From: a phage
Direction: 5' to 3' (one strand)
NCBI GenBank assembly: GCA_018175075.1
Contig: GCA_018175075.1_4100.2
Length of the DNA: 64,000 bases
Below are positions 3,813 through 62,179 of the stretch, in pieces. Each line of letters opens with the position of its first letter. Within the stretch, counting starts at the first letter, position 1. The position numbers and the translations under genes were made by a program. The notes below the pieces were generated by a model that did no database searches, was not told the origin of the DNA, and worked only from the letters and a program-made list of their open reading frames with translations.

Positions 3813-4005
3813 ATGTCCATATTGTAACAGTACTCAATTAGCTCGTTTCCGTTTAGATTCAGACTGGGCGACTGGTGCTGGTGATTTCTTCCCTATTAAT
3901 GATGATGCAGAATACACCGAAGAACAGCACAAAGATTTTGATAAATCATGGCGACCTGACATTGAGTGCATTTATTGCCTTAATTGTGAGCGTGTTCATG
4001 ACTAA
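3805..4005 (+). CDS. small zinc-ribbon protein
   Basis: CPYC ... CIYCLNC cysteine pairs. Confidence 0.5.
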   Translation: MNKCPYCNSTQLARFRLDSDWATGAGDFFPINDDAEYTEEQHKDFDKSWRPDIECIYCLNCERVHD

Positions 4006-4261
4006 AGCTGAACTAATAGTTCATACATATAAAATGATATCAAGTACTGAGTTATCATATAGTGCAGATAATCCAGTACTAGATTATTTTGTTGAATTAT
4101 TGAAAGAGCATTATATTGGTAAATCACTGATTCTTAATAATATTAATTTCACGGTAAAGGATGTAGCACCTGGAAAAAACGTACTAATAGTATGTGTTAC
4201 TTCATCTGATAACCCAGTATACCCAATATCAATAATTTTTGAGATATTAGGAGATTTATGA
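3998..4261 (+). CDS. small paralog-family protein (member 6)
   Basis: IVHTYKMI and YIGKSL motifs; start taken at internal ATG overlapping previous stop. Confidence 0.45.
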   Translation: MTKAELIVHTYKMISSTELSYSADNPVLDYFVELLKEHYIGKSLILNNINFTVKDVAPGKNVLIVCVTSSDNPVYPISIIFEILGDL

Positions 4262-5010: not shown

Positions 5011-5050
5011 ATTGGATGAGGAACAATAACTAACACAAGGAGTGTGTAAA

Positions 5051-5974
5051 GTGCCAAGTAAAAAGCCAGATTCTGAAGTATTCAGACTGGTTGATGAAAA
5101 ATTGAGTTCAATTGGTTCATCGGTAAAAATGGATAGAACAACATACACTACCATATCAAACAAATCAACTTTTTTCTGTGATGAATGTGGGTTTAGTAAA
5201 AATATCATAGTTAGGAATGTGTACAAAAATGGAATATTTTGTCACTGTCCCACATTTAAAACTTTATATAATAAATTGGGTGAAATTAATTCAAAATTAA
5301 AATTAGATATTTCCACATTCACAACTACAAAAAACAAATCTAGATTTTATTGTGACGATTGTGCGTTTGAAAGATATATGACGGTGCATGATGTTAAGTC
5401 TAGAGGTTCATATTGTAAATGTCATTCATCATATTGTATGCCGTTAGATATCGACGAAGCATATAACACTATTATGAATAAAATAAAAGATTACTCAAAT
5501 ACAATATATATGGATAAATCTACATACCGTGGTACACAATATAAGGTTAGATTTTATTGTACAGCGTGTAATTTTGACAAATATATTAATTATAGTAGAG
5601 TTAAATGTGGATCTCTTAACTGCAATTGTATCAGACCAATCCCAGAAGAAAGTAAATTATATATTTTAGGAATATATGAACAAAATATTTTAATAAAATA
5701 TAAAGTTGGTATTTCTACAAAGATTGATAAATCAAGACTAATTAGTATTAGGTCAAAAACTAATTTTATAGTAGAGGAATTATATTATTTTACTGGAAAT
5801 ACCGAAGTTATTAAAAGTGTAGAATATAATATTTTAAATCTGCTTAAAAATAGTAGTAAATTGCCAAAGGATTATTTTGGTGATGGGTATACTGAAACAT
5901 TTGATTTACAAGACATAAATCTTGTTATTGATTATGTATGTAAATGTTTACTCGAAAATAAATTAAAAATATGA
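5051..5974 (+). CDS. putative nuclease: three zinc-ribbon repeats plus C-terminal GIY-YIG-like domain
   Basis: Three repeats of F-x-C-D-x-C...C-x-C; C-terminal GIYEQNILIKYKVGIS resembles a GIY-YIG/T5orf172-type motif; probable GTG start after AAGGAG. Confidence 0.45.
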   Translation: MPSKKPDSEVFRLVDEKLSSIGSSVKMDRTTYTTISNKSTFFCDECGFSKNIIVRNVYKNGIFCHCPTFKTLYNKLGEINSKLKLDISTFTTTKNKSRFYCDDCAFERYMTVHDVKSRGSYCKCHSSYCMPLDIDEAYNTIMNKIKDYSNTIYMDKSTYRGTQYKVRFYCTACNFDKYINYSRVKCGSLNCNCIRPIPEESKLYILGIYEQNILIKYKVGISTKIDKSRLISIRSKTNFIVEELYYFTGNTEVIKSVEYNILNLLKNSSKLPKDYFGDGYTETFDLQDINLVIDYVCKCLLENKLKI

Positions 5975-5999: not shown

Positions 6000-6728
6000 A
6001 TGATAGATAATATAAAATTTGCAACAGAAATGGCGAATCAACTCAATATTGCAAATTTCCAAATGTTAACATCTGTTATGGCTGAACATGCTGCGGCATA
6101 TTCATCTAGCGGTATACAATGTGGACAAGCTAACATGTTAGCTGATGTTTATAGTGAAGTTCAAAGCAAACAATATAGCGTAAAGACATACAAGGATAAG
6201 TTCGTAAGTCTTTATATGAATGAAGATATTTCAGAAGACCGCAAATTCACCGATTTTATTATTGAACGCCGTATTAGTGGGGTTTCAGACCCAAATGCAG
6301 CAAGTGATATTGTATTCGATGAGGTATTAAAAGATATATATGAAAATGAATTGAAAAGTAAGAATCATTACAATGTACGTGAAACTAACACAGTGCTAGT
6401 TGGATATGATGAAGACGACCAATATTTCTATTTTCGTATAACAGAAGTTCCATTTGAATATAAAAAACCATCCACTACATCGGTAAAAGAATTCACTGAG
6501 AAGAGTAAAAACTTCAAGAAACACGAAGGAAACCGTTGTAGTATTAATGGTTATGATGAAAATGGTGTTCATGTTTATGAATGGGTTTCACCTAATTGCC
6601 AAACATACACTCGTTGCTTGAAAAAACGTTATAATTTAGAAGAGCATGAATCATTCTATTTTAAAGTTAAGAAGCAAGGTTACACTCGCCCCGCCGATTC
6701 TGAATTGATGGGTATGATATATTTCTAA
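6000..6728 (+). CDS. hypothetical protein
   Basis: ORF with ATG start. Confidence 0.5.
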   Translation: MIDNIKFATEMANQLNIANFQMLTSVMAEHAAAYSSSGIQCGQANMLADVYSEVQSKQYSVKTYKDKFVSLYMNEDISEDRKFTDFIIERRISGVSDPNAASDIVFDEVLKDIYENELKSKNHYNVRETNTVLVGYDEDDQYFYFRITEVPFEYKKPSTTSVKEFTEKSKNFKKHEGNRCSINGYDENGVHVYEWVSPNCQTYTRCLKKRYNLEEHESFYFKVKKQGYTRPADSELMGMIYF

Positions 6729-7953: not shown

Positions 7954-8639
7954 TTAAAGATTTAGATAGAATTTTATATGTACTAAGGGGTGTAATTACA
8001 TTACATCCACAAATCAATCGAATTGAAAGTACATTTCAGTTGGAGTCAAGAGAAACTCCATATTCACATATATCAAATGTAGTTGGTTCACTCAGTACTG
8101 AAGACTCGCCTTACGATATTTGTGTATGTGAAGTACAACCAAGTTCGGATCTTGGATTTGCTATTTTTGATAAAAATCAAAATCTCATTAGTATGTTTCA
8201 GTGCAATAATCCTTTTTGGAAAACATGCCTGTATCCAGAGTGGGCGATGCTTGATCCAACCAAGAGTACCATTAAAGTTTATGACTCTAAAAATGATGAA
8301 GTCGTTATTGATTTGGATGAGTCAATGTCAGAGGAAGAACACTTTCAGCTAATGATGATGCGTGCTATGCCTGAGTACAATGCAATGATTAACACTGTGC
8401 AATACATTAAGGATACTATGCCATCATTGCGTACACATGAGTTTTGTCATCCTGTATTGTATGAACATTTGGATTTAGATTTCAGTACTATTAAATTTAA
8501 AGATAGTGTTATTAGATATATCCAAGAGGTTACTAAATTTGATTTTATTAGTACTATGAACAATAATCCAAAAACTAATTTTAGGCATCAGTACAATGAA
8601 TCTTTGTCCGGTGGACGCGATACAAGTTGGTGGAAATAA
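7950..8639 (+). CDS. hypothetical protein
   Basis: ORF; start overlaps previous stop. Confidence 0.5.
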   Translation: MIKDLDRILYVLRGVITLHPQINRIESTFQLESRETPYSHISNVVGSLSTEDSPYDICVCEVQPSSDLGFAIFDKNQNLISMFQCNNPFWKTCLYPEWAMLDPTKSTIKVYDSKNDEVVIDLDESMSEEEHFQLMMMRAMPEYNAMINTVQYIKDTMPSLRTHEFCHPVLYEHLDLDFSTIKFKDSVIRYIQEVTKFDFISTMNNNPKTNFRHQYNESLSGGRDTSWWK

Positions 8640-8640
8640 T

Positions 8641-8904
8641 ATGAATATTAAAGATAGATTACAATTACTATACACTATTGAACAGGCTGCTTTTGAACTT
8701 GTTAATAAAATCTCCGAAGAACTTCCCAAAGGAACTATAGTTCGTGTAATTGAGAGGGATTATGAATCTGGAGAAATTGAAGAACTAGTACTAACCGTGA
8801 ATAAAGTAACATACTATGAATCTGAGTTGGCTATCCAATGTATATCGGAAGATGGTAAAATATACTATTATGACACTGGTGTAGATATAGAGGTAATAAA
8901 ATGA
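8641..8904 (+). CDS. hypothetical protein
   Basis: ORF; start moved to ATG 8641 (GGTGGA upstream) to avoid overlap. Confidence 0.45.
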   Translation: MNIKDRLQLLYTIEQAAFELVNKISEELPKGTIVRVIERDYESGEIEELVLTVNKVTYYESELAIQCISEDGKIYYYDTGVDIEVIK

Positions 8905-10043
8905 CCCTTTTACAAATATATGAAGATTTAATGCACTTATGTAATACAAACGATGCGTTTTTTTATGTGGATCATAAAAGTCCTGCTGGTGGTACGTATC
9001 GTGTATTCAGTTATCGTCTAGCATCATACACTGATTTCATGCAACCAAATGCGTTGGAAACCCGTGGCTCTATGTGGGAAATTGATGAAGAAGGTGACAT
9101 GATACGTTGTGCAGCACGTACAATGAAAAAGTTCTTCAATGCTTACGAGAATCCTGCTACAATGTTCCCTGCTAACACCACATGCGATGACATTGCGGTA
9201 GTGATGCCTAAGTTGGATGGTTCGATTATCAGTACTTATCGTGATAATGATGGTGAGATTCGTTGTAAATCACATACTGCATTGTATTCTGACCATGCGA
9301 TTAACAGTACTCGACTTATTAACGAGAACCAGAATTTGTACCAGTACATCGACGAAGCGGAACGTTTAGGTTACACAGTTAATATGGAGTATACAAGCCC
9401 AGAGTACCGAATTGTATTACCATATCAGGTAGAACAACTGTTTGTACTGAACGTTCGACATCGTGTGAGTGGTGAGTTGCTATGTGGTAAAGCACTACGT
9501 GATAAGTTTCCATGTCTTGCACAGTACAGTACTAATATGACTGGAAAAGATATTCATCACACTTTTCCGGTACGAAATACCTTCCGTGAAAGCGTGGAGG
9601 AAGTTCATAAAATGCTTGATATTGAGGGTTTTGTGTGCATCCTAAATAATGGGACAATGTGTAAAATAAAGACTGACTGGTACAGTTCATTACATCTTAC
9701 AAAAGATAGTATTATTATTGATTCTCATTTATATGAAGCAGTATTAAATGGTTCAAGTGATGATTTAAAACAATTGTTCAGTACTGATGAATATGCTATG
9801 CAAAAGATATTAAGAATGGAACAATTGGTATTTTCGTGCTATAATGCATTACAAGATGAAGTAGAAAGCTTCGTCAAGGAACACAAGCACTTGGAGCGAA
9901 AGGAATTCGCAATGAAGGTTCAGGAGTGTTTAACTAATGAACTGAATCGTCAGGGCTTGGCCTTTGCAATGTATAACAATAAGAAAGTTGATTACAAAGA
10001 GACTCTTATAAAATACATGAAAATTGTACTAAAGGATTTTTAG
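8901..10043 (+). CDS. rnlA: RNA ligase 1 (T4 gp63-like)
   Basis: N-terminal region closely resembles T4 Rnl1 as I recall it (FFY...YR.FSY..ASY.D...P.ALE.RG.M.E); length 380 aa; RBS GAGGT. Confidence 0.85.
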   Translation: MTLLQIYEDLMHLCNTNDAFFYVDHKSPAGGTYRVFSYRLASYTDFMQPNALETRGSMWEIDEEGDMIRCAARTMKKFFNAYENPATMFPANTTCDDIAVVMPKLDGSIISTYRDNDGEIRCKSHTALYSDHAINSTRLINENQNLYQYIDEAERLGYTVNMEYTSPEYRIVLPYQVEQLFVLNVRHRVSGELLCGKALRDKFPCLAQYSTNMTGKDIHHTFPVRNTFRESVEEVHKMLDIEGFVCILNNGTMCKIKTDWYSSLHLTKDSIIIDSHLYEAVLNGSSDDLKQLFSTDEYAMQKILRMEQLVFSCYNALQDEVESFVKEHKHLERKEFAMKVQECLTNELNRQGLAFAMYNNKKVDYKETLIKYMKIVLKDF

Positions 10044-10073
10044 TACTATCTAGCCTAAGCACAAGGAGAAGTG

Positions 10074-10328
10074 ATGGCTAAACCTAAGTATAAAAATGAC
10101 GGTTCCCTTTCTCCGACTGAGTTCAGGAAAATACAAGAAGAAATCGATGAATTACAGCACAAACGCTCAATGAAAGGTGTGAAGATAAGTAAGAAACGAA
10201 TCGAGAATACCTTCGGATGTAGTAGTACTGAATACAAGAAGAAAAGGAAACCAAAAGGTGTTAAGCCGAGAATACATGATGTAACTCGCTATACATCGAA
10301 ACGTGAAAATAAATTTGATCCACTATAA
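10074..10328 (+). CDS. small lysine-rich basic protein
   Basis: RBS AAGGAG 5 nt upstream of ATG. Confidence 0.5.
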   Translation: MAKPKYKNDGSLSPTEFRKIQEEIDELQHKRSMKGVKISKKRIENTFGCSSTEYKKKRKPKGVKPRIHDVTRYTSKRENKFDPL

Positions 10329-10337
10329 GGAGTTCAT

Positions 10338-10568
10338 ATGAAAGTTGAAGTTCAGCATAGTATTGTTCAGGATATGTCAGTAGTTAAATTTCTTTCTCTG
10401 AAAGATTACTTCAGATGTATCAAGTTCCTAGAAGAATCTCAATTACAGTGGACCCCATTAAAGTACAGTTCATCCAATGATACTGCTAGTATTCGTTGTG
10501 ATGAATCTGTACTTGTGAAAATCTCCAAGCGATTTGGAGTAGGAAAAGTTAATGAGCACAGTAAGTGA
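10338..10568 (+). CDS. hypothetical protein
   Basis: ORF. Confidence 0.45.
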   Translation: MKVEVQHSIVQDMSVVKFLSLKDYFRCIKFLEESQLQWTPLKYSSSNDTASIRCDESVLVKISKRFGVGKVNEHSK

Positions 10569-10806
10569 CCTAAAATACTACAACAAAACTGCGGATACGT
10601 TTATTACTCATTTATATGAAGAATTTAGTCGTATCCGTAAGGAATATACAGGTAAATGTATTTTATATAGTTCTTATCATAGTGGTGGAATTGAAAGTGC
10701 TTACATTACTAAAGTGAAGTTTTCTGATGACTATCAATTACTCTTTGAATTAGATGATTGTTTCGTTATTGAAGCTTGTTTGATAGTGGATGTTCTAGAT
10801 AATTGA
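10552..10806 (+). CDS. small paralog-family protein (dispersed member)
   Basis: EYTGKCILY motif resembling the YIGK-x-V family motif. Confidence 0.45.
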   Translation: MSTVSDLKYYNKTADTFITHLYEEFSRIRKEYTGKCILYSSYHSGGIESAYITKVKFSDDYQLLFELDDCFVIEACLIVDVLDN

Positions 10807-10812
10807 GGACAT

Positions 10813-11127
10813 ATGAATAAAGAACTTGTATTTGAGAGGATCGAAAAGTTAAAGTACATTGAAAAGGAACTAATAGAATCTGTCGAATCAATGGTCGAAG
10901 ATTACGTTTTCGATTTTAAGAAAACATTGATTGGATGTAAAGTTAAATGCTGGGATCATACAATCAGAGAATGGTTCAGTACTATAATTCTTGATGTTAA
11001 AGTATCGCGTACTGCTATTGGTAATTTAGTAAATGGTGAATGCTTTGTATACACTGAATACAATAACGGAACAAGAAACCTTTCAAGAGGATGGCACAAA
11101 CTCGAAGATGTAGAATTCATTGAGTAA
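10813..11127 (+). CDS. small paralog-family protein (dispersed member)
   Basis: TLIGCKVKCW motif. Confidence 0.45.
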   Translation: MNKELVFERIEKLKYIEKELIESVESMVEDYVFDFKKTLIGCKVKCWDHTIREWFSTIILDVKVSRTAIGNLVNGECFVYTEYNNGTRNLSRGWHKLEDVEFIE

Positions 11128-11139
11128 CAAGGAGTAATA

Positions 11140-12072
11140 ATGCCAACTATTACACTAACAGTTGGATTACCTGGGTGTGGTAAAACCACATGGGCAGTTC
11201 AAGAAATTAAAAATGCCAAATCCAAGACTATCAACATCAACCGTGATGATATTCGTGAATCTATGGCTGGGTCACATGATGCTTACAAATTCAACGATGC
11301 TAATGAGCAGTACGTAACTAATTTACAGTTCAGTGCAGCAAATTCAGCAGCAGAGAATGGTTGGAACATCATCATATCCGATACAAACCTTAAACAACAT
11401 TTCCGTAATCTCTGGAAAGTATGGGCTAAAGATAATGGTTATGATTACAAAGAAAAGAACTTCTATGATGATTTTGTACCTAATGAAGACCGTGGTGCAG
11501 ATGTTCATGAATTCTTTAAGATTAAAGAGTTCGTAAAACTTTGTAAGAAATATAACCTCCAGCGTGAGCGTTCAGTACAAGATGATATCATTGACACAAT
11601 GGCAGATACGTACTATTATAGTAAGGCATTACACATTGGTTACTATGGTAATTCACGCGAAGCTGCTATCATCGTTGATATCGATGGAACTCTTGCTCAT
11701 AAATGGGGTCGTAATCCTTACGATGAAAGTACTGTTCTTCAGGATACACCTGATGAAGAAGTTATTTTGTCTATTATCGCTGAAGCAGTTTTTCATAAAC
11801 GCAAGATTATCGTCATGAGTGGGCGTACTGAAGGGTGTCGTACTGACACCGAACAGTGGCTTAAGAATTGGGGTGTTCCTTACGATGCATTGTTTATGCG
11901 AGGCATCGATGATAAACGTCCTGATGATGTTGTTAAATTCGACCTGTACATGAAAAATGTGGTTAATCAATACGATGTTAAAAAGGTATATGATGACCGC
12001 GAAGCCGTGACGTTCATGTGGCGTAAGCTACTTGGTTTGAAGGTATTTCAAGTAGATTTTGGACGTTTTTGA
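11140..12072 (+). CDS. pseT: polynucleotide 5'-kinase / 3'-phosphatase
   Basis: P-loop GLPGCGKTT and overall resemblance to T4 Pnk (INRDD, VDIDGTLA phosphatase motif); RBS AAGGAG. Confidence 0.85.
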   Translation: MPTITLTVGLPGCGKTTWAVQEIKNAKSKTININRDDIRESMAGSHDAYKFNDANEQYVTNLQFSAANSAAENGWNIIISDTNLKQHFRNLWKVWAKDNGYDYKEKNFYDDFVPNEDRGADVHEFFKIKEFVKLCKKYNLQRERSVQDDIIDTMADTYYYSKALHIGYYGNSREAAIIVDIDGTLAHKWGRNPYDESTVLQDTPDEEVILSIIAEAVFHKRKIIVMSGRTEGCRTDTEQWLKNWGVPYDALFMRGIDDKRPDDVVKFDLYMKNVVNQYDVKKVYDDREAVTFMWRKLLGLKVFQVDFGRF

Positions 12073-12112
12073 TAAAATAAATAGTGCATATATGACAAAA
12101 AGGACTTTCTAT

Positions 12113-12799
12113 ATGCACTATTATATTATATATAAAATAACCAATTTAATTAATAATAAAATTTATATTGGTGCTCATATGACTGATGACATAAATGATG
12201 AATATATGGGTTCAGGTGTTCTGATAAAGAAATCCATTAAGAAATATGGAATTGAAAAATTCAATAAAGAAATACTTTATATTTTTGATAATAAAGAAGA
12301 AATGTATAACAAAGAAAGAGAAATTGTTAATGAACAATTTATACAAAGAAGCGACACATATAACATCAAACGTGGTGGAGAAGGTGGCTACGGCGTAATT
12401 GATAAAGAAAATTGGAAAAAACAAATATCAACGGCACAAAAGAAGCGATATTCTTCAGGTGTTGTGGCTTGGAATAAAGGTAAATCTGTATCAGAAGAAA
12501 CACGTATTCAAATGAGTCAGAGGATGAAAGGTCGTTTCCCTGGAGATAAAAATCCTATGCATGGTAAACCCTGTACATATAAAATGACAGATGAAGAAAA
12601 AACATCATGGTCCAACAATATAAAGAAATCAAACACTGGTAAAAAGAGAACTGATGTTCAAAAACAAAAATATTCTTCGGTCGCGTCAAAACGAATTTGG
12701 TTAGTTCATAAAAGTGGTAAAGTTACTAATACACAAAATGAAAATGACCCACGTTTGAATGATCCAGATTGGCAACGTGGTCAAAAGTGGAGAGAATGA
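12113..12799 (+). CDS. GIY-YIG homing endonuclease (Seg-like)
   Basis: YIIYKITN...KIYIGAH GIY-YIG motif; C-terminal NUMOD3-like repeats; start at ATG 12113 with AAAGGA upstream. Confidence 0.8.
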   Translation: MHYYIIYKITNLINNKIYIGAHMTDDINDEYMGSGVLIKKSIKKYGIEKFNKEILYIFDNKEEMYNKEREIVNEQFIQRSDTYNIKRGGEGGYGVIDKENWKKQISTAQKKRYSSGVVAWNKGKSVSEETRIQMSQRMKGRFPGDKNPMHGKPCTYKMTDEEKTSWSNNIKKSNTGKKRTDVQKQKYSSVASKRIWLVHKSGKVTNTQNENDPRLNDPDWQRGQKWRE

Positions 12800-12823
12800 A
12801 TATTTTTATGGATTATAATTTTT

Positions 12824-12850
12824 GAGGGATCATATGTTGGTCCCTTTTTC
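12824..12850 (+). terminator. intrinsic terminator
   Basis: Hairpin GGGATCA...TGGTCCC plus T-run. Confidence 0.6.
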
Positions 12851-12867
12851 TTTTAAGGAATATTATA

Positions 12868-13044
12868 ATGAATGTAAAAACACAGATGTTATTACAAAAA
12901 GAATACTTAGAAAATATAGAAATGTTCTATAGATTGTCTTTATACGAAAAAAAACATAAAAAATATAGCTTTTCTAAACATCTAAACACAAGTACTGATG
13001 ATTATCTATTTTCATCAATGTTTTATGTGAGAGGTTTATTATAA
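12868..13044 (+). CDS. small hypothetical protein (58 aa)
   Basis: ORF below track threshold; AAGGAA RBS 8 nt upstream; stop overlaps next ATG (TAATG). Confidence 0.4.
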   Translation: MNVKTQMLLQKEYLENIEMFYRLSLYEKKHKKYSFSKHLNTSTDDYLFSSMFYVRGLL

Positions 13045-13304
13045 TGGATAAATTTCACACAGATATAACACAGATAGGTAATCTTATCAATAGTCTAATT
13101 ACTGATTTAGAAGAAAAGTACTTAGGTCGAAATGTATACGTAGAAATGTATGAAACATATGGTGTTATTGATATGATTTATTACAGTGCATTGAAGTGTG
13201 AAATACGTTTAACAGTATGTTTGTTTGAAAAAAATACATTCAACAGAAGTACTGCAATTCGCCAAGTTGGAGTTGATGATATAGAATTATACGAGGAACA
13301 ATGA
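13044..13304 (+). CDS. small paralog-family protein (dispersed member)
   Basis: EEKYLGRNVYVEMY motif. Confidence 0.5.
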   Translation: MDKFHTDITQIGNLINSLITDLEEKYLGRNVYVEMYETYGVIDMIYYSALKCEIRLTVCLFEKNTFNRSTAIRQVGVDDIELYEEQ

Positions 13305-15987: not shown

Positions 15988-16238
15988 TGTTCAACACTGA
16001 CTTATCACATCTGCGATATCTTATGTCTTTGGCTGATGATTTTATAAATGATCTGAAGCCAAAATATATTGGTCAAGAAGTACGATTAATAAACTCCAGA
16101 GGGTATGGAAAGTATATTATTACTGATATGTATATTAGTGGTGGTGAATGGCGTTTTAAAATTAATACTTATCTTAAAGATGGTTCTTTTGCTGGAACAC
16201 AAGTTACTAAACACACTAATATTATATGGTTGGAGTAA
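15987..16238 (+). CDS. small paralog-family protein (dispersed member)
   Basis: KPKYIGQEVRLIN motif. Confidence 0.5.
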   Translation: MFNTDLSHLRYLMSLADDFINDLKPKYIGQEVRLINSRGYGKYIITDMYISGGEWRFKINTYLKDGSFAGTQVTKHTNIIWLE

Positions 16239-16240
16239 TA

Positions 16241-16984
16241 ATGAAACACTTCTTAGAAGTAACCGTACCTGATGATAAAGATTTATACATTGTAGGTGAT
16301 TTGCATGGTAATGGTAAACTATGGGATGCTACAGTGAAAGAATTTGGTATTACACACAATGATTATGTTTTCAGTGTAGGTGATATTATCGACCGTGGAG
16401 AACAAAATTCAAAGCTCCTTTTTGAATTTTTGTTCGGAGAAAATCGTTACATGATTGCGGGTAATCATGAGATGATGTGCGTTGATTCGGAAACACTTCG
16501 AGATTGGTATCATTGTTGGATAAGTAATGGTGGTGATAAATTCCTTGATGAAGTTGGAGGAACAGGCATTCAATTCTTTCGTCAGTACTTAAAGGATCTC
16601 CCTATGATTATCCAAATCAATCACCGAGGATTGAAGATTGGGTTAGTTCATGCTGGTGTTCCGTTGGAATATACAACATGGGAACGATTTGTTAATGGGA
16701 CAAAATCACTTAGTGCTGATATAATTGATAAGTGCTTGTGGGATAGAAAAACATTCGATTATTGTAGAACTAATAATACATATTATGCACCTAAGTTAGA
16801 TGGAGTGCATTGTGTCTTTAGTGGACATACAGCAGTTACAGATCCACTCATTTACGGTAATCGCATTTGGATTGATAGTCAGTTCTTGACGGGTGACTTA
16901 ACTCTCGCTACTCCACAAAGTGGTGGAATGAGATACTTACGTAAAGAAAAAGATGAGTACTCATTCAATCGTTTCAAAAGGTAA
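16241..16984 (+). CDS. Ser/Thr protein phosphatase (PPP family, lambda-PPase-like)
   Basis: GDLHGN, GDIIDRG and GNHE motifs; start at ATG 16241 after GGAG. Confidence 0.8.
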   Translation: MKHFLEVTVPDDKDLYIVGDLHGNGKLWDATVKEFGITHNDYVFSVGDIIDRGEQNSKLLFEFLFGENRYMIAGNHEMMCVDSETLRDWYHCWISNGGDKFLDEVGGTGIQFFRQYLKDLPMIIQINHRGLKIGLVHAGVPLEYTTWERFVNGTKSLSADIIDKCLWDRKTFDYCRTNNTYYAPKLDGVHCVFSGHTAVTDPLIYGNRIWIDSQFLTGDLTLATPQSGGMRYLRKEKDEYSFNRFKR

Positions 16985-17268: not shown

Positions 17269-17496
17269 ATGAAAGTAATTCAAGTTATGGTAGAAAAATA
17301 CCAAACTGAAGATGGTCGTATTTTTGATTCAGCTAAACAAGCTGAACACCATGAACGTATTATTTCGGGTGCACGTAAAGTATGTCCTACATGTAATGGA
17401 ACACAACAAGTACCGTCAGAAGATTACCGCAGCTTTTATGCTTGTCCACACTGTGATGGGAAAGGCTACGTAGAAAAACAAGAGGTATGGAAATGA
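17269..17496 (+). CDS. small zinc-finger protein (CxxCxGxG type)
   Basis: CPTCNGT and CPHCDGKG motifs. Confidence 0.5.
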   Translation: MKVIQVMVEKYQTEDGRIFDSAKQAEHHERIISGARKVCPTCNGTQQVPSEDYRSFYACPHCDGKGYVEKQEVWK

Positions 17497-17906
17497 AATT
17501 GTATTGTTTAACTAATATGTACTGCCAAGGTGTCCAAGCTGGTATTCAAGCATTCCATGCTGGTGTTAAACTAATTAAAGAATATGAAGGTACTGCTTTC
17601 AGTACTATTATTGATGAATGGTACTATGAACACGAAACTATTGTAGTACTAAATGCTGGTGGACATGATAAGTTAAATTCTTATTATAACAACCTTAGCA
17701 AACAGGGAAAAGTTCCGTTTGCCAAATTCAATGAAGCTGGATTGAATGATGCTATTACCTGTGTAGCAGTACTGTGTACGTCTGAAATGATTGAAGACAT
17801 GGCTGTTATGCGTATGAATCTTCCTGCTGGTGATCAACTAATGCAAGTAAAATATGGTGCATTGTTTGACACACTAAAAGCAATCAGTACAATGAGGACT
17901 ATTTGA
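17487..17906 (+). CDS. hypothetical protein
   Basis: ORF. Confidence 0.5.
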   Translation: MEMKLYCLTNMYCQGVQAGIQAFHAGVKLIKEYEGTAFSTIIDEWYYEHETIVVLNAGGHDKLNSYYNNLSKQGKVPFAKFNEAGLNDAITCVAVLCTSEMIEDMAVMRMNLPAGDQLMQVKYGALFDTLKAISTMRTI

Positions 17907-19105
17907 TGGATTTTCCAGAGAAGTTATTTGTTGCACGTTCCTATGTAAACCACAACCAAGTTGATGGTTTTATTATCGATGCAACAAGATCACATACAAA
18001 AGCGTTTGAAACAAAGAAAGAGAGAGCAGAGTACTGGGCAAAGAAGAACAATCTTCCATCGTTATATATTGACAACGTTCCAACTACTGGATTTTGTGTA
18101 GTTGATAAATTAACAATTCATGCACGAGAAACATATTTCACAATCCGTCACCCAGAAGGATTTGAATTTATGATTAGTGCCAAAAACATGAATGATTTAA
18201 TTATCAATAACGATATAATCAAAGGTGTTTTTGTAGACCCAATGTTTTTCAACAATAACTTAGAATTAATTAATGGTAAAACAAAAACATTTGCTAAGTT
18301 AGTTGAAAAAGAAAATAAAAAAGAACAACAAAAAGAAACTGTAGCAGGTCTTAAAGTTGGTGATGGTTTCACGTATCTCAAAGAAGATTACTATTACTGC
18401 GGTAAAGTACATGCAATTTGTATAAAGAAAACTAAAGAATTTGCATACCCCGACAAAAGTTCTGTTTATCATTTACTTTTTAACAGTACTCGTGGAACTT
18501 ATGCATTGAATCAACGTTTGGATAATTACAATCTTGAACCTCGTGCACTCCTGAATAAGAAGACTACGGCAGATGAAGAAATTAAACTTGCTAATGAATT
18601 TTGGCAAAGCTATAGAACAAACAGACATAACCCATTAGGTGAATCTAATATTCCAGTACTGGTACACAATAAATCATTTAAAGCAAAAGACCTTAAAATT
18701 AAATACGAAGAAATAAATGTTGATGATCTTATGAATAATGGACGTTTCAACGAGAACGTACCATTTATGACTAAAGATAATGAACAAACATATCGCGTAT
18801 TTTTTGGTGTAAGTAATAATACAACGCGTAGTTATTATGGGCGTAGTGGAGATTATAATATCCATTATAATGATAAATTTGAACGCTTTAGTGCATATCC
18901 AGTTCAAATTGATGATAATGGGATTATGGTAATGGATGTTGATATTAATGAACACTCATCATTTAGTACATGGAATGGCTATCGTTCCCCATTCTTCCCA
19001 CCAAATGAACGCAAAACATCAAGCACTCGTTACTACCAAGACAAACCATGTCACGTCCAACTATCAATTAGTAATCCACTTTATATTGGAAAGTATTATC
19101 TATAA
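17903..19105 (+). CDS. hypothetical protein (400 aa)
   Basis: ORF immediately upstream of DNA ligase. Confidence 0.55.
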   Translation: MMDFPEKLFVARSYVNHNQVDGFIIDATRSHTKAFETKKERAEYWAKKNNLPSLYIDNVPTTGFCVVDKLTIHARETYFTIRHPEGFEFMISAKNMNDLIINNDIIKGVFVDPMFFNNNLELINGKTKTFAKLVEKENKKEQQKETVAGLKVGDGFTYLKEDYYYCGKVHAICIKKTKEFAYPDKSSVYHLLFNSTRGTYALNQRLDNYNLEPRALLNKKTTADEEIKLANEFWQSYRTNRHNPLGESNIPVLVHNKSFKAKDLKIKYEEINVDDLMNNGRFNENVPFMTKDNEQTYRVFFGVSNNTTRSYYGRSGDYNIHYNDKFERFSAYPVQIDDNGIMVMDVDINEHSSFSTWNGYRSPFFPPNERKTSSTRYYQDKPCHVQLSISNPLYIGKYYL

Positions 19106-19116: not shown

Positions 19117-20535
19117 ATGAGCATTTTAGCAATTCTTGAAAGCATTAAAAATACTAGCAGTACACTAGGCAAAAAAGCTATTCTTGAACAAAATAAAGAT
19201 AATGTAACTTTACAAAAAGTACTGAAATATACACTAGACCCTTCTATCGTTAGTGGCTATAAGAAGCTCCCTGCCGCTGATGACGTATATCAACATATGA
19301 CGTTAGATGAAGCAATTGATAAGCTAGAATGCATTTACAAGCGTGATGTGACAGGAAATGCGGGGCGTGATTTCATTGCTTCAGTACTGGGTTCAGTATC
19401 AGAAGATGATCAAGAAGTTCTCCGTAAAATGCTTACTAAAAACCTTGATTGTGGTATTCAAGAAAAGAACTGCAATGATGTATTTGGTAAAGGCTTTATT
19501 AAAGACGAACCATATATGCGTTGTTCTTTGATTGACAAAAAGACTGCAAAGAACATCAACTTCAAAGATTATGGTTACGCTATATCAGAAGTGAAAATGG
19601 ATGGTCAGTACTTGAACCACGTTGTCATTAATGGTTCATTAACTTCTACATCCCGTAATGGTAAACTATACGACTTCCTGGGTTGTCGTGATGGTGAGAT
19701 GGCAGGTCTTGCTCACATCATCCAAAGTAAAGATGAACGTTTTAGTAGTGGTGTAGTCTTTATGGGTGAAGGTGTAGTACTGGACAATGATGGAGAAACC
19801 ATTCTCCCACGCACTACTGGCAATGGTATAATTCAGAAAGCTGGAAAAGATAGTATCAGTCAGAATGAAGCAATGCGTACTGTATTTGTTCTATGGGATG
19901 TTGTTCCATATGATGCATTTTGTGAAGGTGTATGGGATGTAAAACGTAAAGAACGTCGCGAGATCTTAGTAGATGCAATTAACGAACTCAGTAGTGATTT
20001 TGTTCGTATGGTTGGATTCCGTAAAGTTCTAAACATCAAAGAAGCATTTGAGTACAATAGTGAACTAATGAGCGTAGGTGAAGAGGGTTCAGTACTGAAA
20101 TGTGAAGATGGTATCTGGAAATCTCACACTTCTCCTAAGCAATTGAAAATGAAACTCAAAATGCAACTGGACTTGCGTATTGTTGGTTTCAATGAAGGTG
20201 AAGGTAAGCGTAAAGGTAGCCTTGGTTCTTTACAACTGGAAAGTGCTTGTGGTACATTGAAAGTTAATGTAGGTACTGGAATTAAAGAGAAAGACGCAGA
20301 ATGGACGTTTAAAACCATTTGGGAAAGAATGCAAGAACTCATCGGTCAAGTAGTAACAGTAGAGTGCAATGATATTGTATTCGATAAGCGTACTGGTGAG
20401 CCATCACTGTTCTTACCAGTGTTTATTGAATTTAGATTTGACAAAAACACTTGTGATGATTATACTCGTATCTTAGAAATTCGTGAGAGTGCAGTTGAAG
20501 TGTTCTCAAACAGTATTATTGACGCATTAGGTTAA
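19117..20535 (+). CDS. ATP-dependent DNA ligase (T4 gp30-like)
   Basis: N-terminus resembles T4 DNA ligase (KQKQAILEKNKDN in T4 vs GKKAILEQNKDN here); KxDG-type motif EVKMDGQ; RBS AAGGA. Confidence 0.85.
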   Translation: MSILAILESIKNTSSTLGKKAILEQNKDNVTLQKVLKYTLDPSIVSGYKKLPAADDVYQHMTLDEAIDKLECIYKRDVTGNAGRDFIASVLGSVSEDDQEVLRKMLTKNLDCGIQEKNCNDVFGKGFIKDEPYMRCSLIDKKTAKNINFKDYGYAISEVKMDGQYLNHVVINGSLTSTSRNGKLYDFLGCRDGEMAGLAHIIQSKDERFSSGVVFMGEGVVLDNDGETILPRTTGNGIIQKAGKDSISQNEAMRTVFVLWDVVPYDAFCEGVWDVKRKERREILVDAINELSSDFVRMVGFRKVLNIKEAFEYNSELMSVGEEGSVLKCEDGIWKSHTSPKQLKMKLKMQLDLRIVGFNEGEGKRKGSLGSLQLESACGTLKVNVGTGIKEKDAEWTFKTIWERMQELIGQVVTVECNDIVFDKRTGEPSLFLPVFIEFRFDKNTCDDYTRILEIRESAVEVFSNSIIDALG

Positions 20536-20554
20536 CCATTTATTGGAGGTAATT

Positions 20555-21346
20555 ATGAAATTTGTTGTAACATCTGATGTACACGGTGGGACTGATTACC
20601 TCCATAGTGGTGATTACAGTGATACAGTACTGATTATTGCTGGGGACTTCGATGAAGTTAAACGCAGTCGTTACCGTACTGGTATCGAATCACTATGTAA
20701 GCAGTTTAAGAATGTAGTACTGGTTCCTGGCAATCATGAATATTATGGTTCCAATATCCACAAAACGCATAAAGTACTGTCCGATATACAAGATGAGATT
20801 CCAAATTTCATCTTTTTGCAAAACAAATTTGTATGGCTGGATGGAGTACTGCTTGTTGGTAGTACTCTGTGGACAGACTTCGATAAAGGTAATTCTTTGA
20901 CGAAGTTTGATGCTCGTCAGAAGATGAACGATTACAAACATATCCGTCATGGAACAACATCAGAGCCTTGGCGTAAGAAACTGACACCAGATGATACTGA
21001 GTTTATGCATCACAAAGATAAACAATTTATCAAAAATTCTATTGACACAGTTCGCTTTATGCATGATAATGATTTCAAGGTCATCGTGGTTACCCATCAC
21101 GCACCAAGTTATCAAAGTATTTCACCAAAATATAAAAATGATTCACTGAATGGTTGTTACTGTTCCGATATGGATCAGTACATTGAAGATTTGGGTGCTG
21201 ATGTTTGGATTCATGGTCATGTTCATAGTAGCTTTGACTACCACATTGGTAAGACACGTATCATTTGTAATCCACGAGGCTATGAATCATACAGTGGAGC
21301 TTGTGAGAATTTTGATTACAATCCTAAATTTGTATTTGAAATTTAA
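20555..21346 (+). CDS. calcineurin-like metallophosphoesterase
   Basis: SDVHGG, AGDFDE, GNHEYY, GHVH motifs; start at ATG 20555 after GGAGG. Confidence 0.75.
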   Translation: MKFVVTSDVHGGTDYLHSGDYSDTVLIIAGDFDEVKRSRYRTGIESLCKQFKNVVLVPGNHEYYGSNIHKTHKVLSDIQDEIPNFIFLQNKFVWLDGVLLVGSTLWTDFDKGNSLTKFDARQKMNDYKHIRHGTTSEPWRKKLTPDDTEFMHHKDKQFIKNSIDTVRFMHDNDFKVIVVTHHAPSYQSISPKYKNDSLNGCYCSDMDQYIEDLGADVWIHGHVHSSFDYHIGKTRIICNPRGYESYSGACENFDYNPKFVFEI

Positions 21347-27822: not shown

Positions 27823-28023
27823 ATGATGGCATACACAATTTATGAATGGGTTTTGAGTTTTTTTATAGTTTTTTCTATTGTTGTAATTTATAACAATGCT
27901 AAATGCTTATATAGAGACTTGAAATCCAATGGTTATCACAAAGATAATAATTTTATGTATGCCTATCATATTGGAATCATTCTGTTATTATCAATATATT
28001 TAATTGTTTTTTATAAGGATTGA
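27823..28023 (+). CDS. small membrane protein
   Basis: Hydrophobic ORF. Confidence 0.45.
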   Translation: MMAYTIYEWVLSFFIVFSIVVIYNNAKCLYRDLKSNGYHKDNNFMYAYHIGIILLLSIYLIVFYKD

Positions 28024-28025
28024 AT

Positions 28026-28778
28026 ATGATATCAGAAAAATTTATAAGCAATGAAGGTAAAAAGCGATTACTGATTATATCAGGTGCAGGACTTTCTGTT
28101 GAAAGTGGTATGGAACCTTTTCGATTTGATGATGGTTTGTGGGATACATTTAAAATTAATGATGTATGTAACATTGCTAGTTTAACTACGAAATATCACG
28201 TTGTTCATTCCTTCTATAATACATTACGTGTAAAATTGGGACAATGCGAACCCAATGCAATGCATTATTTTATAAAATCGTTAGAAGATCAATATGGTGA
28301 TTGCTTCCTTCATATGACTTCTAACATGGACGATCTTTATACTCGTATTGGTGGTCATGAGCTTAAACTTCATGGAAACTTGTGCGAAGTTATTGAAAAT
28401 TATAGTATCAATTCCGATGATTATAATGTTATTAACTGCGGATACGAACCATACATACCAAAACATGATGTTTTTGCTAAACCAAATGTAGTAATGATTG
28501 GAGAATATCATCGTTATGTTGATGGTATTCGCTTACCAATTTACGAAGAACGAAATAATGTGTTGAAATCTCTTAATGAAAATGATACAGTTATTGTAAT
28601 TGGTAGTAGCGATACAGTACTGGTATGGTCGAGATTAGCAGCAGCATTACCATGTTATAGTGTTAATGTTAACATTCGTAAAAATGATAATGATTTTTTG
28701 TTTAATGAAAAAGTTATCAAGCCAGCAACCAAAGCAATACCGCATCTAGAGACTATAATTAAGGAACGTATGAAATGA
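28026..28778 (+). CDS. Sir2-family (sirtuin-like) NAD-dependent protein
   Basis: GAGLSVESGMEPFR NAD-binding motif and LHGN catalytic His motif; start at ATG 28026. Confidence 0.65.
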   Translation: MISEKFISNEGKKRLLIISGAGLSVESGMEPFRFDDGLWDTFKINDVCNIASLTTKYHVVHSFYNTLRVKLGQCEPNAMHYFIKSLEDQYGDCFLHMTSNMDDLYTRIGGHELKLHGNLCEVIENYSINSDDYNVINCGYEPYIPKHDVFAKPNVVMIGEYHRYVDGIRLPIYEERNNVLKSLNENDTVIVIGSSDTVLVWSRLAAALPCYSVNVNIRKNDNDFLFNEKVIKPATKAIPHLETIIKERMK

Positions 28779-29326
28779 GTGTTAAAGAAGTTCCCTTTGG
28801 TGAATATGGCACACGTGCAAATTTTGTATTTTGTTATTTCTTTGCAAGAAAATGCAACCCTTACAAAAACTATGAGTTGAATGATATACCAGAAGTAAAT
28901 TTAGTATTACTGCAATTACGATGGGATGGTCTTCTTGGTGGATGTGGTGGAACCGTAGAAAGTACTGATATCTCACTAGAAGATGCGTTGCGTCGTGAAG
29001 TTCAAGAAGAAATGGATTACAATATTTTTGTTTCCCATCTTCGACCACTCAAAACTTTTGAAATTTACCCAGGTGCAAACAGTCACAGTTTTAGCTATGA
29101 AGTAACCTATGACGAGTTGAAACACATTAGAGATGGATACACTAATGCTAAACATGCAAGTGCAGAAGTTGCTGGTGTAAATTTATGTCATATTTCTCGT
29201 TATTCTAAGGGACAAAATCGAGAAGCGGGATATAATAATCTTATGACACAGAACTTCATCGGTACAGCAAAACAAGAATTGGAGTATCTGGTTCAAAAAG
29301 AAAACTTACTAATTAGTTATCTATAG
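28775..29326 (+). CDS. Nudix-like hydrolase
   Basis: GCGGTVE ... REVQEE matches a Nudix box with atypical spacing. Confidence 0.45.
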   Translation: MSVKEVPFGEYGTRANFVFCYFFARKCNPYKNYELNDIPEVNLVLLQLRWDGLLGGCGGTVESTDISLEDALRREVQEEMDYNIFVSHLRPLKTFEIYPGANSHSFSYEVTYDELKHIRDGYTNAKHASAEVAGVNLCHISRYSKGQNREAGYNNLMTQNFIGTAKQELEYLVQKENLLISYL

Positions 29327-29335: not shown

Positions 29336-29656
29336 ATGTCTTACTCAATGTTTTTGGATGATATTCGTGATGCAAATCTATATTATCCAAACCAAGATAT
29401 GGTGGTATGTCGTGACTTTAAAAGTGCATGTGAATATGTTATTGAAAATGGAATTCCAGCATTTGTATCATTCGACCATGACTTGGGTGATGTGAGCGAA
29501 GACGAAAAGACTGGATATTCTTTTGCTAAGTTTCTTATTGATTATATGTTTGATAATAATATTAAAGAACCGTTTGAGTACTTTGTTCACAGTAGTAATC
29601 CTGTTGGTAAAATTAATATTGAAACATACTTAAACAATGGATTTAACTCATTATGA
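29336..29656 (+). CDS. hypothetical protein
   Basis: ORF; RBS GGAG. Confidence 0.5.
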   Translation: MSYSMFLDDIRDANLYYPNQDMVVCRDFKSACEYVIENGIPAFVSFDHDLGDVSEDEKTGYSFAKFLIDYMFDNNIKEPFEYFVHSSNPVGKINIETYLNNGFNSL

Positions 29657-29955
29657 TTCAAACACACATCAAAAGTCTTATTTGTACTGTTCTGTTAGGT
29701 GCAGGAGTTCTTTGGTTCGGACAGTATCACGAGAACACTAAGCGTACCAACATTCACTACAATACCGCAGAAGTTGTTAGTTTAGGACAATGTAGCGAGT
29801 CCAAATGTTCATTTATGTATAAAACCCAAAGTGGTGAAGTACGTAATGGACTATCAAGAGAACCAGTTTCAATTGGTCAACTTGTTTACCAGGAGTGCTG
29901 GGAAGAAAAGGTTCGAGGTTCACGTTGCTATGTTGAATACGAACCAAATATGTAA
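29653..29955 (+). CDS. small membrane protein
   Basis: N-terminal TM segment; conserved cysteines. Confidence 0.45.
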   Translation: MIQTHIKSLICTVLLGAGVLWFGQYHENTKRTNIHYNTAEVVSLGQCSESKCSFMYKTQSGEVRNGLSREPVSIGQLVYQECWEEKVRGSRCYVEYEPNM

Positions 29956-45913: not shown

Positions 45914-46480
45914 ATGGTCAAATCTTTATTACCGCCACCAAAACGTCACAAAATCAAAGAAATGAAAGAACAACGTACATTAAAGATGTACATCAATTTA
46001 GTTAAGTTACTGTGTAAAAGTCCATCGCTCAAAGCAGAGTTTAAAACTGATGATGACCGCAAAGCACTAATTGAGATGAAGTATATGCTCAGTAAAATGT
46101 CCTTTTACAAATTTGTAAAAGAATACGCATCTGACCCATTTAGTCCTCGTTGGAGAGCCAAACCAAGAGAGTATTTTTACGGTGGTTCATATACGGATCT
46201 CATTCAAGACACAGTGATGGGAGTTGAATTTGAAATCGATTATGATCCGAATGGTGTGGAAAGCTGGCCGATTGAGAAACGTTTACCAAGTGAAGAAGAA
46301 ATTTATGTTTATGCAAGAAAACTTTCAAATTTCAGTTCAAGAATTACTCTAGGCAATTTAGATTCATTTATTATTTTCTATACACGTGTTGGTGTAGATA
46401 AAATGGTAACTAAACTCAATGAACTTTCATTACAACAAAAACAGATTAATGCATACAAAGACATTACTGATTTATACTAA
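45914..46480 (+). CDS. hypothetical protein (triplet paralog 1)
   Basis: RBS AGGAGG; KTDDDRKALIEMKYMLSK motif shared with next two genes. Confidence 0.5.
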   Translation: MVKSLLPPPKRHKIKEMKEQRTLKMYINLVKLLCKSPSLKAEFKTDDDRKALIEMKYMLSKMSFYKFVKEYASDPFSPRWRAKPREYFYGGSYTDLIQDTVMGVEFEIDYDPNGVESWPIEKRLPSEEEIYVYARKLSNFSSRITLGNLDSFIIFYTRVGVDKMVTKLNELSLQQKQINAYKDITDLY

Positions 46481-46492
46481 TGAGGAATGGAT

Positions 46493-47008
46493 ATGTTTTT
46501 TGGATCAGTTGGAAAACAAAACAGTACTTTAATTTGGCATGAAATTATCTTTAAAATTATATCTAAAAGCTACTCACTAAAGGATATTATCACCACAGAT
46601 AATGATAGACGTATCCTGTTAGATGCAAAATATAAATTGAGCAAACACCCTTTACTTTCTTTAATCATTGATTACGTTAATGATTATGAATCTAGTCGTT
46701 GGAAGTGGGAAGACGGCGGTTTATTTCGTGGAAAAACATTCTACGGTGCGGAACGATATGTTTTCAGTGATACATCAAATGGCGTTAAGTTTGCTATTAG
46801 AAACTTTAACTCCAAAGAAAATGATTATCTTGAAAGTGGAGTGAAAGTATATATCGATAATAATAGCAATGTACTAACATATGACGAATCACTAATTATG
46901 TTACAAATAATGCGTGGAGTTGAAGGTGTAAGAAACAACCTTACTAAATTGAAAATCCAGCAAAATGATATACATAATAGACAGAAAATTAAGGGTTTAT
47001 ATAAATGA
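46493..47008 (+). CDS. hypothetical protein (triplet paralog 2)
   Basis: TTDNDRRILLDAKYKLSK motif; start at ATG 46493. Confidence 0.5.
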   Translation: MFFGSVGKQNSTLIWHEIIFKIISKSYSLKDIITTDNDRRILLDAKYKLSKHPLLSLIIDYVNDYESSRWKWEDGGLFRGKTFYGAERYVFSDTSNGVKFAIRNFNSKENDYLESGVKVYIDNNSNVLTYDESLIMLQIMRGVEGVRNNLTKLKIQQNDIHNRQKIKGLYK

Positions 47009-47514: not shown

Positions 47515-47516
47515 CT

Positions 47517-53870: not shown

Positions 53871-53871
53871 A

Positions 53872-60779: not shown

Positions 60780-60785
60780 AAGTGT

Positions 60786-60812: not shown

Positions 60813-60823
60813 AAGGTATCTAT

Positions 60824-62176: not shown

Positions 62177-62179
62177 AAT

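Follow-up and report, generated by a model that had tools for sequence, protein, structure and literature searches.

The 64,000-nucleotide stretch of phage DNA analysed here (contig GCA_018175075.1_4100.2 of assembly GCA_018175075.1, referred to below as the window) carries an RNA ligase gene and a polynucleotide kinase-phosphatase gene within positions 8901 to 12072, and it is likely that the phage thereby encodes a pathway of the T4 'heal and seal' type for broken tRNA, together with accessory enzymes that act on RNA ends. In T4, the repair of PrrC-cleaved tRNA-Lys by polynucleotide kinase-phosphatase (Pnkp) and RNA ligase 1 (Rnl1) is established, and the annotation of rnlA in the T4 record itself states this function. 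The proposal for the core pathway draws on homology to the T4 enzymes with retention of their catalytic residues, and that for the accessory steps on family membership and published predictions. The window is a stretch of the genome of an Asteriusvirus jumbo coliphage. The 3.2-kb block holding the ligase and kinase genes is found in 36 phage records, all of them jumbo phages of 310-384 kb from Escherichia coli or Salmonella and assigned by those records to the genus Asteriusvirus, with 99.1% identity to Escherichia phages vB_EcoM_G17 and Sharanji and 97% to 121Q. The annotations of these 36 public relatives already name the ligase, the kinase and a nucleotidyltransferase. Nearly all genes of the window are on the + strand, including the four that had been singled out in an earlier sequence-only reading, which encode the ligase, the kinase, the nucleotidyltransferase and a 2H protein (Table 1). 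Despite the richness in tRNA-repair genes, no tRNA genes and no Rfam families at the gathering threshold were detected within the 64 kb.

The product of the gene at 8901..10043 is predicted to be an RNA ligase of the T4 RnlA family. It scores above the cut-offs of the Pfam families RNA_lig_T4_1 (PF09511; 58.8 bits, cut-off 28.3) and T4_Rnl1_C (PF20819; 62.4 bits, cut-off 27, residues 268-379), the latter indicating that the all-helical C-terminal domain specific to Rnl1 is present, as well as above that of the NCBIfam equivalog TIGR02308, 'T4 RnlA family RNA ligase' (292.6 bits, cut-off 242.25), and it matches PHROG 562 with an E value of 3e-109. Its relatives in the PDB consist only of three T4 Rnl1 entries, at E values of about 1e-56 (the best being 2c5u at 1.5e-56), and its identity to T4 Rnl1 amounts to 39%. 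The KxDG motif, K104-L-D106-G107, aligns with K99-E-D101-G102 of T4, and its Lys, Asp and Gly are invariant in 119 homologues. The further residues which we take from the T4 literature to make up the nucleotidyltransferase site of Rnl1 are also retained, with T4 R54, K75, F77, E159, E227, G228, K240 and K242 corresponding to R55, K77, F79, E163, E242, G243, K255 and K257, and an equivalent of T4 K117 is present. Among the 12 catalytic positions, 11 do not vary in the 119 homologues, while the position of T4 F77 is Phe in 117 of them.

The product of the gene at 11140..12072 is, by the same kind of evidence, a predicted T4-type polynucleotide kinase-phosphatase. It matches the Pfam families HAD_PNKP (138 bits, cut-off 27.6) and AAA_33 (50.4 bits), and its best PDB match is T4 Pnkp (1ltq, E value of 9e-36), to which it aligns from end to end with 38% identity. 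The kinase domain holds the P-loop G9-L-P-G-C-G-K15-T16 (K15 and S16 in T4) along with D36 and R39 (T4 D35 and R38), and contains an insertion of about 19 residues that is common to the jumbo-phage clade. In the phosphatase domain, the DxDxT motif is represented by D180-I-D182-G-T184 (T4 D165, D167 and T169), and the supporting residues R176, S211, R213, D254, K258, D277 and D278 of T4 are found as R191, S227, R229, D262, K266, D285 and D286. The pair of T4-type Rnl1 and Pnk that the sequence-only reading had proposed for positions 8901-12072 is thus borne out at those coordinates by profiles, PDB matches and catalytic residues, and the predicted nucleotidyl-lysine of its KxDG motif is K104.

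The ligase gene, four small open reading frames (ORFs) and the kinase gene lie close together on the same strand as one compact unit. The products of the four ORFs measure 84, 76, 84 and 104 amino acids, the first two being referred to here as sA and sB. Clear ribosome-binding sites, with short spacers, precede three of the four as well as the kinase gene, while 10552..10806 has a weak one only. The clearest terminator-like hairpin lies only after the kinase gene, and in relatives that do not possess the endonuclease insertion described below it stands directly 3' of the kinase stop codon. A promoter scan of positions 8300..13200 returned 20 sites where 25.7 were expected from shuffled sequences, that is, no excess. 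The order of ligase, small ORFs and kinase is kept in 18 further related jumbo-phage loci, comprising a 198-kb metagenomic phage contig, in which the ligase identity reaches its lowest value of 45%, and 17 loci of GAP32-, CBB-, fHe-Yen9-04- and RaK2-type jumbo phages. The layout in T4 is the same, rnlA, alc, pseT.3, pseT.2, pseT.1 and pseT following one another on one strand. Since the block occurs in 36 records, and the order in 18 further loci and in T4, the linkage of ligase and kinase is not due to chance. As to the small ORFs themselves, blastp comparison with T4 alc, pseT.1-3, cd.4/5 and denA gave nothing below an E value of 0.9; they show no homology to these T4 genes, and it follows that the gene order is shared with T4 and the gene content is not.

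Two of the small proteins travel with the pair. In 16 of the 17 distinct related loci, a copy of sA with 55-61% identity comes immediately 3' of the ligase gene, the RaK2 locus (L032) being without one, and sB is found in all related loci at 57-70% identity, abutting or overlapping the kinase start in the sister genera. The two ORFs that follow sB are lineage-specific: both occur in 121Q and the window, one in PBECO4, and none in GAP32-, CBB- and RaK2-like loci. A comparison of the window's 28 ORFs between 3.2 and 17 kb with 10-kb neighbourhoods from seven distant relatives yielded homologues for just six, namely a 242-residue protein, the ligase, sA, sB, the kinase and a calcineurin-like phosphoesterase; one locus also gave a short partial match to the ORF at 3875..4261. 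The ligase, sA, sB and kinase genes appear in constant order across these seven relatives, apart from the absence of sA in L032, and the identity of sA and sB to their counterparts (55-70%) is at least as high as that of the enzymes (41-64%), with most of the neighbouring small ORFs turning over. No match was obtained for sA in Pfam and PDB, nor for the 242-residue protein in Pfam, NCBIfam and PDB. A single-sequence model of sB (predicted local distance difference test score, pLDDT, of 74) shows a ferredoxin-like beta-alpha-beta-beta-alpha fold of generic type, for which no diagnostic match was obtained. The very basic sA could bind RNA. The conservation of both proteins may reflect plain inheritance in syntenic genomes or work with the pair. 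It is quite unlikely that they are accessory subunits of the repair machine, which would make the RaK2-like unit a four-protein tRNA-repair cassette and not the two-enzyme pair of T4.

A separate observation concerns the 3' end of the kinase gene. A GIY-YIG homing endonuclease gene at 12059..12799 on the + strand (phrog_314, E value of 5.5e-48; weak Pfam GIY-YIG and NUMOD3 matches) overlaps the kinase stop codon and precedes the terminator hairpin; the net increase in length is 746 bp. This insertion is present only in TH47 among 50,697 phage records. Compared with the endonuclease-free relative E9.1, most of the ligase-kinase pair shows 100% identity or close to it, and identity falls to 94% in the 100-nucleotide windows at 11601 and 11901 of pnk and to 62% in the one spanning the stop codon. 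The C-terminus of Pnkp is changed at the insertion, reading QVDFGRF in place of QVAEGNF in E9.1. The drop in identity at the end of pnk (flanks 11600..12850) fits the co-conversion tract that homing is expected to leave.

Table 1. Features of the window, in order of position.
Feature	Position	Strand	Length	Remarks
242-residue protein	6000..6728	+	242 aa	phrog_16105; 1-2 kb upstream of ligase gene; 56-65% identical in 7 of 7 distant relatives
RNA ligase 1, T4 RnlA family (predicted)	8901..10043	+	380 aa	Predicted adenylylated lysine K104, motif K104-L-D-G
sA, small very basic protein	10074..10328	+	84 aa	phrog_15306, function unknown; ribosome-binding site AAGGAGA before ATG
sB, small protein	10338..10568	+	76 aa	phrog_14730, function unknown
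Lineage-specific small ORF	10552..10806	+	84 aa	Inserted between sB and kinase gene
Lineage-specific small ORF	10813..11127	+	104 aa	Inserted between sB and kinase gene
Polynucleotide 5'-kinase/3'-phosphatase, Pnkp (predicted)	11140..12072	+	310 aa	N-terminal P-loop kinase, C-terminal HAD phosphatase
Terminator-like hairpin and T-run	12824..12846	+		Pattern scan; probable end of ligase-kinase transcription unit
Calcineurin-like phosphoesterase	16226..16984	+		41-43% identical; about 3 kb downstream of kinase gene in 3 of 7 relatives
PTH2-type peptidyl-tRNA hydrolase	17487..17906	+	139 aa	Candidate for translation rescue
Sir2	28020..28778	+		Pfam SIR2, 73 bits
Nudt16-like Nudix	28775..29326	+		Pfam Nudt16-like, 68.6 bits
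cREC, cyclic-phosphate-processing receiver domain	29336..29656	+		cREC_REC, 80.5 bits (cut-off 27)
Small membrane protein	29653..29955	+		Member of Sir2 cluster
PIN-PhoH	30016..31455	+		PIN_4, 72 bits; PhoH, 150 bits
RlaP-family Pol-beta nucleotidyltransferase	47915..49147	+	410 aa	
Minimal stand-alone 2H phosphoesterase, 2H-SAK family (putative)	62391..62801	+	136 aa	Motifs H57-V-S59 and H127-I-T129

Outside the ligase-kinase unit, one of the candidate accessory enzymes is a nucleotidyltransferase of the RlaP family. The RlaP and 'Swiss Army Knife' domains were reportedly defined by Burroughs and Aravind in the journal NAR (Nucleic Acids Research) in 2016. The Pol-beta-type assignment made in the sequence-only reading has been confirmed, as the protein passes the curated Pfam RlaP profile (PF10127; 59.5 bits, cut-off 23) and matches phrog_388 over its full length (E value of 7e-76). 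Homologues numbered 824, and 119 among the 120 listed carry PF10127. The motif G[GS]-x(9-13)-DxD is represented by G16-S17, D28 and D30, conserved in at least 82 of 84 sequences, and candidates for the third carboxylate are D59 (84 of 84) and E81 (82 of 84), the latter being Asp in T4 NrdC.11. The catalytic domain is 29% identical to that of NrdC.11, and the two proteins also align over a second segment, which spans the C-terminal helical domain; no direct PDB match was found up to an E value of 1. Two bacterial members of the family have been reported to add one or two nucleoside monophosphates to RNA 3'-OH ends, to prefer damaged RNA and to be able to restore function to over-trimmed tRNA, and T4 NrdC.11 has been recognised as a member (2025 preprint, PMC12776372). 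With these Pseudomonas enzymes, PfRlaP and PaRlaP, the phage protein shares PF10127, an N-terminal Pol-beta nucleotidyltransferase domain with G-S...D-x-D and a C-terminal helical domain, but it is larger and is not encoded in an RtcB operon. The adjacency to an RNA ligase gene from which the family takes its name is not seen in the window, where the pair is 36 kb (and rnl1 38 kb) upstream of the gene and tail (fibre) genes come next. In T4, too, NrdC.11 is remote from rnlA. An Rnl1 gene is followed at a distance of 1.2 kb by an RlaP gene in contig L015, and RlaP genes occur within RtcB and other ligase operons (PMC12776372); adjacency is frequent and not obligatory. Upstream of the window's RlaP gene, at 45914..47918 on the + strand, three paralogous ORFs of 169-188 amino acids (phrog_18641 and phrog_7868) and one of 133 amino acids have no Pfam matches and are of unknown function; their stop and start codons are close-packed or overlapping, and the last ORF overlaps the RlaP start.

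The second gene outside the unit that had been noted from the sequence alone, near the end of the window, can be filed as a divergent member of the 2H-SAK family (PF22547). This is the sole Pfam family matched by the protein, with 25.6 bits over the C-terminal half only, which is under the cut-off of 27, and a precomputed match to it is carried by 25 of 28 homologues. In 21 sequences with identities down to 42%, H57, H127 and T129 do not vary, and conservation of S59 is at least 90%. An AlphaFold model computed from the alignment of these sequences reached a pLDDT of 90.1 and a predicted template modelling score of 0.83, and shows the internally duplicated 2H fold; in a fold search, the top 20 matches were all 2H phosphoesterases, so that the fold assignment is solid. 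The proposal of a 2H protein therefore holds through its invariant catalytic motifs, its confident model and the family membership of its homologues, though under the PF22547 cut-off. No PDB match was found by sequence. The top fold match was the anti-CBASS protein Acb1, with scores that are flat, running from 7.0 to 5.1 over 14 matches. A comparison with T4 gp57B (Acb1) by hhalign gave a probability of 0.4% and an E value of 0.14, by which the identity of the protein as Acb1 is ruled out at the sequence level. When T4 57B was used as a tblastn query for a canonical Acb1 elsewhere in Asteriusvirus, 1486 records were matched, with no coliphage of about 350 kb among the 60 sampled. The gene is called 'hypothetical protein' in every GenBank record listed, and UniRef labels one orthologue a Swiss Army Knife 2H domain protein.

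The gene context of the 2H family has been examined in related phages and metagenomes. A profile search against 1.8 billion representatives detected 1077 cluster representatives, nearly all of them stand-alone proteins of 130-170 amino acids. A metagenomic protein of 335 amino acids (P0275) is a fusion of the same minimal 2H-SAK domain with YqeY, a GatB-like and tRNA-associated domain, and in two contigs (L003 and L010) a stand-alone YqeY gene is found a few kb away from 2H. In these two and a third sister-lineage contig (L011), a run of genes encodes a PF09414 RNA ligase, DUF2828, 2H-SAK, lysozyme, the ribosome hibernation factor S30AE, a CCA enzyme, Nudix and glutaredoxin; HAD, PRTase_3, YqeY and PTH2 genes are further members of the run in two of the three. 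In GAP32-, CBB- and fHe-Yen9-like phages, a block of about 6 kb upstream of 2H comprises a second RNA ligase of the PF09414 type, HAD, PRTase_3 and DUF2828. The corresponding part of the window, 59978..62391, holds only four small ORFs of unknown function between the thymidine kinase gene and the 2H gene, with the downstream lysozyme gene retained, and the 2H gene stands 50 kb downstream of the pair. In phage E9.1, which is 98.9% identical, a tRNA nucleotidyltransferase (CCA-adding enzyme) is encoded about 1.8 kb past the point where the window ends. A tblastn search with the second ligase matched GAP32, CBB, fHe-Yen9, Serratia BF and others, and no Asteriusvirus record; the absence of this block from Asteriusvirus indicates a repair set that is reduced relative to the sister genera. 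Overall, and by analogy with these relatives, gene context favours an RNA role for the 2H protein.

Further candidates were found between the pair and the RlaP gene. Five consecutive genes on one strand encode Sir2, Nudix, cREC, a small membrane protein and PIN-PhoH, with Sir2, Nudix, cREC and PIN above their Pfam thresholds. A sirtuin neighbourhood with 2H, Nudix, cREC and PIN has been described in jumbo phages and is predicted to act in NAD+-dependent RNA repair (NAD, nicotinamide adenine dinucleotide) by removing 2'-phosphates from broken RNA (Iyer et al., 2022; PMC9503650, section 3.7.3). Of configuration 1 in that work, the sirtuin, Nudix, cREC and PIN members occur in the window, and no second 2H gene was found beside Sir2 among the ORFs of 26-32 kb. 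Closer to the pair, a small protein is a candidate peptidyl-tRNA hydrolase of the PTH2 type (Pfam 25.2 bits, cut-off 23; phrog_3668), its match to the NCBIfam Pth2 equivalog being weak and far below the cut-off.

Taken together, these assignments suggest the following route. A host anticodon nuclease would cut a tRNA to leave one end with a 2',3'-cyclic phosphate and another with a 5'-OH. The HAD domain of Pnkp (D180/D182) would remove the 2',3'-cyclic or 3'-phosphate and its P-loop domain (K15) would phosphorylate the 5'-OH, following which Rnl1, adenylylated on K104, would transfer adenosine monophosphate to the 5'-phosphate and seal the break. Among the accessory enzymes, RlaP may add one or two nucleotides to the 3'-OH end where the nuclease has also removed a base (damage of the RloC type), the 2H and cREC proteins may open cyclic phosphates, and Sir2 and Nudix may use an NAD+-dependent route to take off the 2'-phosphate so formed. 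PTH2 could free peptidyl-tRNA from stalled ribosomes, and the CCA-adding enzyme just past the window could rebuild tRNA 3' ends.

A number of observations weigh against such a pathway and its accessory enzymes. In the ligase, T4 K119 is replaced by H125; this lysine is presumably functionally important in T4, and literature searches returned nothing on its role. The column holds His in 46, Lys in 41, Gln in 18 and Asn in 14 of the 119 sequences, and given this variation across the family the His is not counted against a working enzyme. In Pnkp, the T4 lid arginine R126 aligns with Q141 and not exactly with an Arg; R142, one position later and adjoining the clade insertion, is Arg in all nine jumbo-clade sequences. 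At the level of gene order, the related jumbo phages are syntenic genome-wide, and adjacency is thus in part a matter of inheritance and not of selection. The RlaP, 2H and Sir2-cluster genes are separated from the pair by 16-50 kb and stand among genes for tail, lysis and nucleotide metabolism, and within the window all three are tied to it by family membership alone, the supporting linkages coming from other phages. T4 Pnkp can itself remove 2',3'-cyclic phosphates (PMC3592404), which means that the core pathway needs no 2H enzyme.

Other explanations have been considered, none of which is preferred. One is that the four genes noted from the sequence represent families and not one system, with the pair as a functional unit and RlaP, 2H and the Sir2 cluster engaged in unrelated processes and co-inherited in jumbo phages. 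The distances of the Sir2 cluster, RlaP and 2H from the pair (16, 36 and 50 kb), the unrelated contexts of tail fibre genes after RlaP and lysozyme after 2H, the long-range synteny of the relatives used for context, which inflates apparent linkage, and the loss in Asteriusvirus of the second RNA ligase that is the closest RNA-repair neighbour of 2H in the sister genera are all compatible with it. It is nonetheless rather unlikely, considering that RlaP lies close to Rnl1 in L015, an unrelated contig, that the distribution of RlaP in jumbo phages mirrors that of RNA ligases (PMC7824862) and that RlaP genes are found inside ligase operons (PMC12776372). The 2H protein, taken by itself, might instead be an anti-defence phosphodiesterase destroying host immune signals (cyclic oligonucleotides, 2'-5' oligoadenylates or cyclic ADP-ribose derivatives) in the manner of Acb1, known from T4 (gp57B) and phage FBB1, or of coronavirus and rotavirus 2H enzymes. 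Acb1 proteins are among its viral fold matches, viral 2H enzymes have been listed under counter-nucleotide systems (PMC7824862), an RNA-healing 2H enzyme would be partly redundant with Pnkp in view of the activity on cyclic ends cited above, and the gene adjoins a lysozyme gene and not RNA genes. This, too, is on balance improbable: profile comparison finds no relationship to T4 Acb1, the only Pfam family matched is an RNA-repair family, one family member is fused to YqeY, and three related contigs have an RNA ligase gene a few kb away from the 2H gene, which immediately follows DUF2828 and precedes a CCA enzyme gene. Moreover, Yersinia phage fHe-Yen9-04 has both a 2H orthologue (P0016) and a separate protein named Acb1. 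Finally, the ligase could be mainly morphogenetic, like T4 gp63 in tail-fibre attachment, with Pnkp mainly trimming 3'-phosphate DNA ends during host DNA breakdown and RNA repair being secondary or absent. T4 gene 63 has both activities, the family is named 'RNA ligase and tail fiber protein attachment catalyst' in PHROGs and RefSeq, and T4 Pnkp also acts on DNA ends. This explanation is very unlikely, since a purely structural role would not call for the near-complete conservation of the ligase's catalytic residues; the C-terminal domain specific to Rnl1 is also kept, and the ligase stays tightly coupled to Pnkp. Asteriusvirus virions, moreover, probably have multiple unrelated fibre types, and a T4-like fibre attachment step is not evident.

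A tRNA repair pathway of the T4 type with accessory RNA-end enzymes thus remains the preferred explanation, and it can be compared with what has been described elsewhere. The pair belongs to the same families as that of T4, with both domains of each enzyme and the catalytic residues kept. It differs from T4 in the non-homologous intervening genes, the insertion in Pnkp and the His in Rnl1, and in belonging to a jumbo phage of about 350-370 kb, not one of T4 size. The suggestion in the sequence-only reading of a toolkit larger than the classical pair stands, and was even understated, with the Sir2 cluster and PTH2 to be added; its contrast with the classical pair is weaker than was proposed, because T4 itself encodes an RlaP protein, NrdC.11. 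Such an extended RNA-repair toolkit is already known for jumbo phages (PMC7824862; PMC9503650). A survey of 224 of these phages described RNA ligases (Rnl1, Rnl2 and RtcB) with PNK-HAD, 2H and cREC phosphoesterases, RlaP and CCA enzymes, the ligases, PNK-HAD, 2H, RlaP and CCA enzymes being congruently distributed (Iyer et al., 2021; PMC7824862), and the group 2.2 jumbo phages have the same component list as found here, with an ATP-dependent RNA ligase, PNK-HAD, 2H, cREC, RlaP, a CCA enzyme and Sir2/Nudix/PIN (PMC7824862; PMC9503650). What is new is modest: Asteriusvirus carries a reduced version of the toolkit of its sister genera, lacking the second-ligase block of the GAP32-, CBB-, fHe-Yen9- and Serratia BF-like phages, and two uncharacterised small proteins, sA and sB, travel with the ligase-kinase pair. 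The current picture is unchanged, with the pair annotated publicly, the accessory families catalogued for jumbo phages and RlaP activity recently shown for bacterial members. Cleavage of tRNA is a common last-line bacterial defence, the success of which is decided by phage repair enzymes, and knowing correctly which repair genes Asteriusvirus phages carry helps to predict which hosts can restrict them; several of these phages are under characterisation as agents against pathogenic E. coli.

Some minor observations were made on other genes of the window, all on the + strand. Two further candidate mobile endonuclease genes are found at 53827..54483, an HNH endonuclease candidate (Pfam HNH, 25.7 bits), and at 5042..5974, encoding a protein of 310 amino acids that matches phrog_681, 'endonuclease'. 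The PTH2 gene is followed by a gene for a conserved protein of 400 amino acids and unknown function (17903..19105; phrog_14061), an ATP-dependent DNA ligase gene (19117..20535) and a gene for a second calcineurin-like phosphoesterase (20543..21346). Together with a dCMP deaminase gene that the annotation of the relative E9.1 places further downstream, this arrangement resembles the T4 order rnlA - pseT - cd - gene 30.

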